Shown piece by piece: positions 50,132 through 53,035 of a stretch of DNA of 64,000 bases. The stretch is from assembly GCF_049060185.1 (NCBI RefSeq), contig NZ_JBMEQO010000002.1. The stretch is one strand, 5' to 3'. The translations under genes were made by a program, and so were the position numbers. How positions within the stretch are numbered: position 1 is the stretch's first letter; the number at the start of each line of letters is the position of its first letter. The stretch comes from Nannocystis pusilla (GTDB lineage Bacteria > Myxococcota_A > Polyangia > Nannocystales > Nannocystaceae). Under the pieces are notes generated by a model. The model worked only from the letters and a program-made list of their open reading frames with translations. It was not told where the DNA came from and searched no databases.

Positions 50132-50500
50132 CTACCCGGTCGTGTCGTCGGTGGTCGACGCGGAGCCCGTGCCCGTCGTCGGCCCCGTCGTGCCCGTGGC
50201 GTCCGTCGTCGTCGCGTCCGTCGTCGTCGCGTCCGTCGTCGTCGCGTCCGTCGTCGTCGCGTCCGTCGTCGTCGCGTCCGTCTGGGTCACCTCCGTGCCC
50301 TCCGAGTCGGTGTCGGGCCCGCCGTAAGCGGGCTGGCCGACGGTGCAGGCGGCGACCACGAGCGCAGCGGCCAGCGCGGCCAACGGGCCCGTGCGCTCCG
50401 GGTGGGACCGCGACGCTCCGCAGTGGGGACAGCTCGGATCGGCGGCGCGTACCAGCTCGTCGCATCCGGCGCAGGACAACAGGTGAGTCTCGGGGACCAA
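50132..50500 (-). CDS. Small zinc-ribbon plus single-TM protein with (DATTT)x6 tandem repeats
   Basis: CAGCDELVRAADPSCPHCG; hydrophobic LAALAAALVVAACTV; TDATTTDATTTDATTTDATTTDATTTDATG encoded by 15-bp tandem repeats at 50211-50285. Confidence 0.45.
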   Translation of the reverse strand: MVPETHLLSCAGCDELVRAADPSCPHCGASRSHPERTGPLAALAAALVVAACTVGQPAYGGPDTDSEGTEVTQTDATTTDATTTDATTTDATTTDATTTDATGTTGPTTGTGSASTTDDTTG

Positions 50501-50661
50501 GCCACGCGCGATCTTTCGCCCACTCCGTGGACCGTGTCAACGCGCGCGAGCGCGGGCCCTCGCCGGCTCGACGGCCGTGCGCGGCGACACCGGGGCTCGC
50601 GCCGTGCCTGTCGGACCGGCTCGTACGTCCATGCCCGCTTCGGCATGGCGGCGCGGCCCGC

Positions 50662-51015
50662 TCAGGCGCGACGGATGACGCGGATCTTGGGGTCCAGCGA
50701 GTACAGCACGGAAGCGCCGCTTGGCTCGATGGCCACCACCACGAAATCCAGCTCGGTCGAGAGATCGACGGCCGGCACCGCGAACGAGGTGCTGCTGATC
50801 GGGCCGCTCTTCGGCCACGGATTCACGCCGGCCCCGACCGAGTAGGCATATACGGCGTAGGTGACCCCGGCCACCGTGAAGTCGGAGATGGAGACCTGCA
50901 CGGTGCCCGACTGGTAGAACGTGTCCTCGATCAGGGTGAAGGTCTGGGATTGATAGGTGATCTGCAGCGCGCCGCTCACGAGCGTCGCGGTGAGGTTGAG
51001 CCTGGCGTACAACAA
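50662..51015 (-). CDS. Beta-strand-rich hypothetical protein (117 aa). Overlaps the 5' end of the divergent gene at 50957; non-ATG start
   Basis: High GC3; alternating hydrophobic pattern (QITYQSQTFTLIEDTFYQSGTVQVSISDFTVAGVTYAVYAYSV). The frame begins at a TTG directly after an in-frame stop. Confidence 0.4.
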   Translation of the reverse strand: MLYARLNLTATLVSGALQITYQSQTFTLIEDTFYQSGTVQVSISDFTVAGVTYAVYAYSVGAGVNPWPKSGPISSTSFAVPAVDLSTELDFVVVAIEPSGASVLYSLDPKIRVIRRA

Positions 51016-51406
51016 TCAGTCGGGGCCGCCGTGGGCGTCGGACAACCCGATCCACTGGGGGAACACCTTCGGCAGCAACGGCAACATGCAGCGCTTCCTG
51101 TCGACGCTCGTCATCGTCCAGGACATGAACGTGACGGTGACGTCGCAGGCCACCTACTCCGAGAGCGAGCAGCAGACGATCCGCAGCCAGTCGAGCGCCG
51201 GGATGTGGCCGTTCTACACCCAGAGCAGCAGCAGCGGCTCCGACACCAACGTCGGCTTCAACAGCCAGGGCAACATGACGGTCACGATCACCAGCCAGCC
51301 GGGCGTGGCCGTCGTCGTCGGCTGCATCGTCCTCCCCGCGGGCCAGTACCTCGGCCACGAGTCCGAGCGGTCGCGGCTCCTGTCGGCCGCGCGCGCCAAG
51401 CGGTAG
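50957..51406 (+). CDS. Hypothetical protein, paralog of the C-terminal module of the 51480..52619 product (GMWPFY motif)
   Basis: GTG start; SLAYNNQSGPPWASDNPIHWGNTFGSNGNMQRFL...VTVTSQATYSESEQQTIRSQSSAGMWPFY...MTVTITSQPG...GQYLGHE aligns with the C-terminus of the next protein. Confidence 0.5.
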   Translation: MICSAPLTSVAVRLSLAYNNQSGPPWASDNPIHWGNTFGSNGNMQRFLSTLVIVQDMNVTVTSQATYSESEQQTIRSQSSAGMWPFYTQSSSSGSDTNVGFNSQGNMTVTITSQPGVAVVVGCIVLPAGQYLGHESERSRLLSAARAKR

Positions 51407-51479
51407 CTCCATTCGACGGCGCGCGCGAGGTCGGTCGTCGGCCTCGCGCGCGTCGCTCACCACACGAGGGCCAACCATC

Positions 51480-52619
51480 ATGCACGTCGACTCCGACGCG
51501 GGCCTGCCCGCGATGACGATCCTGCAGGGCAAGTTCTACAACGGCCTCACGACCGCGCTCCAGGCCAGCCCGACGAGCTTTCAGCTAGGCGTGCCCGCGG
51601 TGCCGCTTCCGGCCACCGACGCGGGGCTGTGGGCCTGCCTGGACGTGCTGCCGCCGAAGTCGCTCACCTTCAATCGCGCGCAGCCGCCGAGCCAGTACTT
51701 CGCCGCGTACGCGGCGGTGGTGGAGCAGCTCGAGTACACGCCGTCGCTCGTGTCGGTGATCGGGTCTGCGGCCGACGCGGCGTGGCTGAAGTATCTCGCC
51801 GGCCTCGACCCGCAGCCGAGCATCTGCCAGCAGGGCCCGATCTTCCGCACCTGGGCCGAGGAGAACGGCTACGGCGGCGTGGCCGTGACCGGAGCGTCGA
51901 ACCTCGCCGGCACCTGCCTGTTCGAAAGTCAGCAGCAGGCGGTCGCCCGCTACCAGGGCCCGAAGGCCCTGCCCATCGACTTCGTCGGCGGCTACGCCGA
52001 TCTGCTGGCGGCGATCGCCGCCGCCGGCCCGGCCCACGTGGCGTTCGACAGCCTCAGGACCAGCAGCAACGTCTCGGGCACGTGGGCGGGCGGCCAGCAG
52101 CTCGGGCTGCAAGGCCTGTGGACCGGGCTCGGCCCGCTCGATCCCCTGAGCGCGCGGTTCGCTGCCGGGCGCGTGCAGGTGACGGCCGAGCTCACCCACT
52201 ACGCCCCGCGGGTGGTCACGCCCGGCGGCTGGTACAGCTCGAGTCTGCTCAACGTCGCCTACTCGAGCCAGGCGTCCCCGCCCTGGCCCGTGGGCGCCGA
52301 TCCCGACTGGAACGACGCGTTCGGCCCGGCAGGGAACCTGTCGTGGCTCCTCGGTTCGCTAGCGATCGGCGACGGCCTCCACGCAGTGGTGACGTCGACG
52401 GCGCGCTTCACCGCGGCGGAGCAGGCGACCCTCCGCGCCCACGCCGCGCTGGGGATGTGGCCGTTCTACGCGCCCACGGGCGGCGTCGTGACGAACGCGG
52501 TGAGCTTCGACGCCACCGGCCACCGGACGATCACGACGACCAGCGCCGGCGGCAACCCGTTCGTGCTGGGCGGGGCGGTGCTGGGGATCGCCCAGTACCT
52601 CGGTCGGGCCTCGGGCTGA
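51480..52619 (+). CDS. Hypothetical protein (379 aa) with a C-terminal GMWPFY module
   Basis: Intact ORF; C-terminus LLNVAYSSQASPPWPVGADPDWNDAFGPAGNLSWL...VVTSTARFTAAEQATLRAHAALGMWPFYAPTGG...TITTTSAGGNPFVLGGAVLGIAQYLGRASG. Confidence 0.55.
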   Translation: MHVDSDAGLPAMTILQGKFYNGLTTALQASPTSFQLGVPAVPLPATDAGLWACLDVLPPKSLTFNRAQPPSQYFAAYAAVVEQLEYTPSLVSVIGSAADAAWLKYLAGLDPQPSICQQGPIFRTWAEENGYGGVAVTGASNLAGTCLFESQQQAVARYQGPKALPIDFVGGYADLLAAIAAAGPAHVAFDSLRTSSNVSGTWAGGQQLGLQGLWTGLGPLDPLSARFAAGRVQVTAELTHYAPRVVTPGGWYSSSLLNVAYSSQASPPWPVGADPDWNDAFGPAGNLSWLLGSLAIGDGLHAVVTSTARFTAAEQATLRAHAALGMWPFYAPTGGVVTNAVSFDATGHRTITTTSAGGNPFVLGGAVLGIAQYLGRASG

Positions 52620-52645
52620 CCGGCGATCGAGAAGGGCGTGACTCG

Positions 52646-53035
52646 CTACGTCGTCGCCACCGGTCTGCCGAACACCACGCACACGATCACGCCCGGCGCC
52701 GAGAACGTCGGTGACGCCGGGTCGCCGAAGTCGACGCGGCCGGTGTACTGGATCCGCGGATCGTCCGCCGGGTAGACCTTCGGGCTGAGATCGTCCGCCG
52801 GGCCGCCCGTGGTGTCGTCGGGCTCGCCTGTGGTCGGCGCGGCGGTGGTCGAGGCGCCGGTGGTTGCGCCCGTCGTGGTTGCGCCCGTCGTGGTTGCGCC
52901 CGTCGACGGCTCGGCGGTCGGCGCGACCGCATCGGTGCTCGAGCCGGTGCCGTCGAGAGGATCGTGGTCGTCACCGGCGCAACCGACGAGCAGCCCGAGG
53001 AACACCATGAAGACGCGAAGTCGCAGGACCGGCAC
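52646..53035 (-). CDS. Small lipoprotein with (GATTT)x3 repeats
   Basis: MVFLGLLVGCAGDD lipobox; TGATTTGATTTGATTGAST encoded by 15-bp tandem repeats near 52850-52900. Confidence 0.45.
   Translation of the reverse strand: MPVLRLRVFMVFLGLLVGCAGDDHDPLDGTGSSTDAVAPTAEPSTGATTTGATTTGATTGASTTAAPTTGEPDDTTGGPADDLSPKVYPADDPRIQYTGRVDFGDPASPTFSAPGVIVCVVFGRPVATT

Follow-up and report, generated by a model that had tools for sequence, protein, structure and literature searches.

Two-component β-pore-forming toxins encoded by tandem paralogs include staphylococcal LukS/LukF and the CDC-like long/short pairs of Bacteroidota. Gasdermins (bGSDM, e.g. PDB 8sl0, 7n50 and 7n52; GSDMA3/B/D/E) also bear on what follows, being the only structural relatives, and weak ones, found for the protein family described here. 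A third point of comparison is the class of deletion-generated pseudogenes, 5′-truncated fragments with spurious new starts that are annotated as short hypothetical proteins. A locus at positions 50132–53035 of a 64-kb stretch of DNA (the window) was originally predicted to encode two paralogous proteins of 149 and 379 amino acids (aa), likened to β-pore-forming toxins, and a 117-aa gene overlapping the smaller one on the opposite strand. The window comes from Nannocystis pusilla, its 379-aa product being 100% identical to NCBI protein P0001 of that species. We propose that the locus is most probably a decayed copy of a gene block, scarred by a 4.85-kb deletion (probability about 0.88, a figure that covers this reading only and not the gasdermin-like function considered further on). 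The two small open reading frames (ORFs), ORF149 and ORF117, match deletion-generated pseudogenes exactly, and differ from the usual remnants only in a head-to-head fusion that mimics an overlapping antisense pair.

At 84% identity, the nearest relative of the 379-aa protein is encoded on L001, a 188-kb contig from another N. pusilla assembly. There an intact gene block spans roughly 6.8 kb, with genes A and B divergent from three others. In L001 coordinates it reads:

298..669, − strand: 123-aa gene (protein P0164)
722..3610, − strand: Ser/Thr kinase (STK) with TPR repeats, 962 aa
3679..4296, − strand: extracytoplasmic function (ECF) sigma factor, 205 aa
4700..5893, + strand: gene A, 397 aa
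6001..7107, + strand: gene B, 368 aa

By blastn the window matches this block in two collinear pieces, L001 294..635 to window 50658..50999 (92%) and L001 5484..7117 to window 50997..52629 (90%), and the intervening L001 636..5483 (4.85 kb) finds no match anywhere in the window. Base-by-base reading against both L001 segments carries the left homology to 50999 and starts the right homology at 51000, with TG at 50997–50998 common to both parental sequences. The corresponding elements of the window are:

50658..50999, − strand: probable remnant of the 123-aa gene, first 11 codons and upstream region gone (blastn against L001 294..635)
50662..51015, − strand: ORF117 (maximal), 117 aa
50957..51406, + strand: ORF149 (maximal), 149 aa
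50997..51000, no strand: putative deletion junction
51000..51406, + strand: probable 3′ remnant of A, equal to residues 262–397 of the 397-aa A (tblastn, 91% identity, E 8e-80)
51480..52619, + strand: the 379-aa ORF, intact B, 379 aa from ATG 51480

This arrangement would be accounted for by an illegitimate 4.85-kb deletion whose junction, at 50999/51000, shows 2 bp of microhomology. The 123-aa gene would have lost its start, A its promoter region and first 261 codons, and the kinase and sigma factor would be gone altogether, leaving two beheaded genes abutting head-to-head and B alone intact. Each beheaded frame would then stay open for some codons into the antisense strand of the other gene, giving the appearance of a 149-aa protein and of an overlap.

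The ends of both small ORFs can be read in these terms. The first 14 codons of ORF149 are spurious, a reading of the 123-aa gene in antisense. The first 5–6 codons of ORF117 come from the antisense strand of A, beyond the junction: P0164 starts MPTISVTEATTINLTAT and ORF117 starts MLYARLNLTAT, so that MPTISVTEATTI of the 123-aa protein is swapped for MLYARL, read off the A antisense strand. The maximal ORFs overlap by 59 bp (50957..51015) because both frames happen to stay open across the deletion junction. NCBI calls the A remnant at 50996..51406 (136 aa, TTG start, WP_421059786.1, by exact-sequence look-up) and the remnant of the 123-aa gene at 50662..50979 (105 aa); these calls do not overlap, a 16-bp gap lying between them. 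Pseudogenisation by point mutation was considered for the five stop codons in the + frame just upstream of ORF149 (upstream of 50957) and rejected, as these lie on the antisense strand of the other gene and the deletion explains them. The G+C content at third codon positions (GC3) was tried as a strand test over 50662..51015 and is uninformative there, ORF117 (−) and ORF149 (+) having the same wobble phase.

Much of the original description of the locus holds. All five ORFs that it named are present (ORF listing and translation), and GC3 is 0.89–0.99 in 5/5 of them, the level expected for true coding sequence of this genome. The 149-aa and 379-aa proteins are indeed paralogs: ORF149 aligns with residues 257–378 of the larger protein over 124 aa, 40% of them identical (E 6e-27), PPW, GN, VTS, EQ, GMWPFY and QYLG are common to both in the alignment, and neither matches a recognised domain in Pfam, NCBIfam, PADLOC or PDB sequences. 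The interpretation placed on these facts changes. What was seen as a shared C-terminal module of about 120 aa is part of a homology that runs over the full ~370 aa of the family, ORF149 being a truncated copy. The pairing of a short, module-only protein with a long one (149+379) is unique to this genome; what is conserved is ~390 aa followed by ~375 aa. A lower GC, also claimed for the locus, is confined to ~50.6–51.3 kb (63–66%, against a window mean of 71%) and does not extend to the 379-aa gene (72.5% GC). In the low stretch the GC content at first and second codon positions (GC1 and GC2) is about 0.5 and GC3 is 0.99; the dip arises because the encoded proteins are rich in Ser/Thr/Asn/Gln. 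A foreign-DNA island was rejected as its source, since GC3 is 0.99 and the reduced GC is confined to GC1 and GC2.

The order of A and B was surveyed in 24 metagenome loci and several further contigs, with locus GC from 45% to 73%. In nearly every locus with enough flank, a full-length A (~380–397 aa) lies directly upstream of B (~365–400 aa) on the same strand (L002, L004–L006, L008–L011, L015, L018–L025, L033, L034, L036 and L037). Damaged copies of A are split in L003, L016 and L017, and reduced to the 5′ end in L014. In a neighbour-joining tree the upstream (A) genes form one clade and the downstream (B) genes another, which means that the A/B duplication is old and that the gene order has been kept. 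A then B is an ancient, order-conserved paralog pair across many soil-metagenome lineages. The expectation that the pair would be conserved in related genomes is thus borne out for the family, found elsewhere and nearly always as an A–B pair, but not for the short-plus-long arrangement of the window. An A–B–A triple occurs in one metagenome lineage with a GC of about 55% (L019, 206..3853; L020; L026). The A proteins of distant lineages align to L001 A over its whole length with 40–53% identity; since outgroups have full-length A homologs, the 261 N-terminal codons are ancestral, and it would be the window that has lost sequence rather than L001 that has gained it.

Two other accounts of the locus have to be weighed. 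That it holds a genuine short C-terminal-module paralog which, together with the 379-aa protein, makes a β-pore-forming toxin pair, with ORF117 as a genuine overlapping gene, has become very improbable. Both small ORFs are open, with high GC3 and a ratio of nonsynonymous to synonymous substitution rates (dN/dS) of ~0.3 against L001, and both are annotated as proteins by NCBI. However, the parts of both ORFs that make the overlap are antisense of the neighbouring remnant, past the junction, and the overlapping ORF is not supported as a meaningful gene. The native N-termini are missing, and for A the entire upstream region. The overlap is not conserved: the 123-aa gene and A are 4 kb apart in the other strain. 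A C-terminal-only A stands beside B at no other locus, the sole other short A (L014) keeping its 5′ end. The family of the 117-aa gene is restricted to N. pusilla (two homologs among 5.8 billion proteins, both from this species), and ORF117 has no match in the Pfam, NCBIfam, PADLOC or PDB sequence libraries. The reversed polarity, in which the window is ancestral and L001 gained a 4.85-kb insertion (kinase, sigma factor and extra coding sequence), can appeal to a comparison that rests on two N. pusilla assemblies only, but outgroups with full-length A orthologs already refute it in effect, as an insertion can neither create 261 A codons homologous (40–53%, full length) to unrelated metagenome A proteins nor restore the proper start of the 123-aa gene.

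Several observations weigh against reading the locus as the dead product of one deletion: (i) the full block is present in one comparison genome only; (ii) its flanks differ between the two N. pusilla assemblies, so one deletion is too simple a history for the region; (iii) neither remnant has internal stops or frameshifts, and their GC3 is 0.91–0.99; (iv) dN/dS against L001, at 0.31 for what is left of the 123-aa gene and 0.36 for what is left of A, resembles the 0.38 of intact B. Remnants that are open and have B-like dN/dS imply either a recent deletion or some continuing constraint on them. A recent date is the probable one; the selection analysis says no more, and dN/dS was rejected as a means to date or prove pseudogenisation because the values for the remnants are indistinguishable from that of intact B. 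With A and its upstream region lost, the window copy most likely has no function, or survives at most as a relic with B alone. B may itself be silent in the window if A and B form one operon, the promoter region of A having been deleted.

The family to which A and B belong is unnamed. B starts either at ATG 51480 (379 aa) or at ATG 51513 (368 aa), as in its closest homolog; in the alignment its homologs begin at MT(I/V)LQ. Among 5.8 billion proteins B has 15 close homologs, and a profile search of 1.84 billion cluster representatives gave 394 family members at E<=1e-3, 174 of them at E<=1e-30, counted as clusters at 50% identity. Two scans of 185,579 GTDB species genomes, using degenerate short-peptide patterns from close relatives, found no relative, which is consistent with a patchy, accessory distribution. 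Pfam has no match for A or B of the window, for any of 105 family members or for longer members, and NCBIfam and PADLOC have none for A or B; in PADLOC-DB v2, A, B and the 123-aa protein are without a match and the kinase alone is matched, by generic kinase models only. A profile of the 105 sequences finds nothing among PDB sequences at E<=10, and full-text literature searches found no description of such a family. Some members carry an extra segment of ~110–130 aa, N-terminal in P0061, P0086, P0104 and P0139 and C-terminal in P0047 and P0067, with recurring motifs HVY(N/R)TG, P(P)GHT and LQVLY and no Pfam match.

The near-invariant positions of the 105 sequences are W (6), P (4), G (3), F (2) and Y, A and Q (1 each), with no conserved acidic, basic or nucleophilic residue among them; the lack of a conserved polar residue of catalytic type argues against an enzyme. 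N-terminal alignment and Kyte–Doolittle profiles reveal no signal peptide or transmembrane segment in A or B. Their N-termini, MANSGSPTNFVDLQ (A) and MTILQGKFYNG (B), have no hydrophobic h-region, and the Kyte–Doolittle maxima over 19 residues, 1.76 (A) and 1.45 (B), both fall at internal β-strands.

An AlphaFold2 model of B built from the 105-sequence alignment has a mean pLDDT of 97.2 and a pTM of 0.91 (an earlier model from 15 sequences was poor, pLDDT 63). The predicted fold is a β-sheet of N-terminal strands 23–27 and 52–54 and C-terminal strands 174–179, 221–234, 278–298 and 326–358, of which 278–298 form a long hairpin, with a helical domain inserted at residues 62–170. The N-terminal helix is part of the modelled fold (pLDDT 98). 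The segments of alternating Ser/Thr in the original prediction are strands of this modelled sheet. The top Foldseek match of the model is the bacterial gasdermin 7n52 (E 0.019, probability 0.51, TM 0.15–0.20), and a viral fold library gave no significant match. The predicted fold is consistent with a gasdermin lead, a weak one, and would not amount to membership.

LukS/LukF and the CDC-like pairs share with A and B the arrangement as tandem paralogs in fixed order, implying heteromeric assembly, and the Ser/Thr-rich amphipathic strands. Neither A nor B has the Sec signal peptide or lipobox of a secreted β-pore-forming toxin, and no leukocidin, aerolysin or MACPF fold was found in the family. 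The differences from gasdermins are several. There is no sequence similarity, and the Pfam Gasdermin model is unmatched by A, B and the 105 members; the fold of the A/B family carries an inserted helical domain of about 110 aa, and the structural scores are weak. The A/B family, unlike gasdermins, comes as two paralogs, and lacks both the N-terminal Cys and the short inhibitory C-terminal peptide.

The genomic surroundings of the pair were compared in about 13 independent contexts, on which all context counts rest. Only the A/B pair itself is conserved across them, with no conserved third gene after the pair. A common small upstream gene was considered and rejected, as L015 and L033, which come from one organism, have identical 135-aa genes, and these are unrelated to the Nannocystis 123-aa gene. 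Type VI secretion system (T6SS) genes lie within about 1–3.5 kb in 3/~13 contexts, namely PAAR-Ntox46 with DUF4123/Tsi6 (L001), Hcp (L010) and TssG (L024). Three contexts have toxin–antitoxin or TIR genes nearby, MqsA-like (L005), ThsB_TIR/TIR_2/LD_cluster2 (L033) and VapBC (L034); one group has transposases (L002), and in L036 and L037 the neighbours on either side are plain metabolic or regulatory genes. No peptidase gene that might supply an activating protease adjoins the pair in any of these contexts, the sole peptidase-like gene near it being a weak match to Peptidase_S15 outside the block in L001. Taken together, the contexts and the patchy distribution favour an accessory or conflict-related module, although they do not themselves identify its function.

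In Myxococcota and Planctomycetota, ECF groups linked to STKs form regulatory cassettes. The intact block likewise has ECF sigma factor and STK-TPR genes, divergent from A–B, although STK genes adjoin the pair in only 3/~13 contexts (L001, L005 and L030) and both regulators are deleted in the window. A candidate ECF-type promoter, GGAAC-N16-GTC, lies at L001 4589..4612, upstream of full-length A, in the divergent intergenic region between it and the ECF sigma gene, and is no more than one weak match.

Conserved order of old duplicates is the usual signature of products working together, and A and B probably act together as a non-enzymatic hetero-oligomer. That the hetero-oligomer of the intact module acts on membranes, as a gasdermin-like cell-death or toxin effector, is the favoured proposal for its mechanism, though a tentative and rather unlikely one, with the lack of an adjoining protease gene, the lack of an N-terminal cysteine and the heterogeneous neighbours of the pair all counting against it. 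That A and B are an ordinary pair of cytoplasmic proteins, structural or binding, and uninvolved in membrane damage or conflict, comes a little short of an even chance; the gasdermin matches would then reflect the generic similarity of twisted β-sheets. Against an ordinary pair stand the patchy distribution just described, the frequent position of the pair beside toxin–antitoxin, TIR, transposase or T6SS genes, and a fairly high dN/dS (~0.38), which together are more in keeping with accessory or conflict genes than with housekeeping ones.

It is improbable that A and B serve the T6SS, as cargo effectors or as accessory proteins, instead of being cell-autonomous effectors of death or defence. 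The T6SS genes near the pair in three contexts and the lack of a signal peptide on A and B speak for such a role, but about 10 other contexts have no T6SS gene, no candidate immunity gene is conserved beside the pair, and Hcp of L010, TssG of L024 and PAAR of L001 find no homolog in the 64-kb window by tblastn. Neither A nor B contains a PAAR or Rhs domain by Pfam. Returning to a membrane-active pair, its fullest form is speculative and decidedly unlikely: the A/B family would be a new class of two-component gasdermin-like membrane-permeabilising effectors, an obligate ancient paralog pair in which a helical domain, possibly an auto-inhibitory one, is inserted. Activation would need no dedicated protease and might come through Ser/Thr-kinase or ECF signalling, the effectors would serve in bacterial conflict, for instance abortive infection or T6SS-linked antagonism, and the window would hold a recently inactivated copy.

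The edges of the shared block are sharp, lying within a few bases of gene ends in both assemblies (window 50658 and 52629; L001 294..7117), and no repeats, recombinase genes or integrase genes that would signal mobility were found at them. In L001 the block is flanked by Peptidase_S15 on one side and by DUF808, DUF4123/Tsi6 and PAAR-Ntox46 on the other; in the window, by a hybrid histidine kinase and a zinc-ribbon gene on one side and by a lipoprotein and a methyltransferase on the other. A scan of 50.0–53.2 kb found no Rfam family, sigma-70 promoter or intrinsic terminator. The nearest flanking ORFs of the window are:

50132..50500, − strand: zinc-ribbon flanking ORF, 122 aa, GC3 0.935
52646..53035, − strand: lipoprotein flanking ORF, 129 aa, GC3 0.885

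The DATTT and GATTT repeats reported for these two genes are 15-bp tandem repeats (Tandem Repeats Finder), present 5.9 times at 50195..50282 and 3.1 times at 52860..52905, respectively. Their bracketing of the locus is incidental to the module, both genes lying outside the shared block and beside the pair nowhere else. The 122-aa protein has an N-terminal CxxC...CxxC zinc ribbon, one hydrophobic segment (Kyte–Doolittle maximum 1.86 at residue 37) and a Thr/Asp-rich (T)DATTT tail; its match to Zn_ribbon_3 is weak (E 0.0013, below the Pfam cut-off), and its gene has no homology to L001 by blastn. The 129-aa lipoprotein, with lipobox LLVGC and a (T)GATTT-rich linker, matches only itself among the 5.8 billion proteins. 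Its residues 97–122 show weak similarity to the opening 26 positions of Pfam CE2_N (E 0.0097), and 17 bp separate its stop codon from the edge of the block at 52629. The protein may represent what is left of the N-terminus of a CE2/SGNH carbohydrate-esterase lipoprotein that was cut off on arrival of the block. Long Thr-rich repeats (TTTTGPDTTTTTGPD) also occur in a 325-aa lipoprotein-like ORF at 55901..56878 (−), so Thr-rich low-complexity linkers seem to be general for exported proteins of this genome and not a mark of the locus.

Elsewhere in the window, a sensor histidine-kinase ORF at 46080..48119 (−) has its GC3 signal in phase 0 except between about 47,180 and 47,540, where the signal sits in phase 2. 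Over 47180..47540 the long frame gives Arg/Pro/Ala-rich junk and a nested 115-aa ORF (47210..47557) is protein-like. This suggests two compensating frameshifts, reflecting either a pseudogene or assembly indel errors.

The comparison with the intact block removes a false lead, since the module-only paralog and the overlapping antisense gene would be by-products of one deletion. Both remnants stand in public annotation as ordinary hypothetical proteins. For experiments, the right material is the intact block of the other N. pusilla strain and not the window. The analysis also brings to light an unnamed, confidently folding A-then-B family whose members are scattered through soil bacteria. If the pair is not membrane-active, this would be one more domain of unknown function; if it is, gasdermin-type cell-death effectors would be extended to a protease-independent, heteromeric form.

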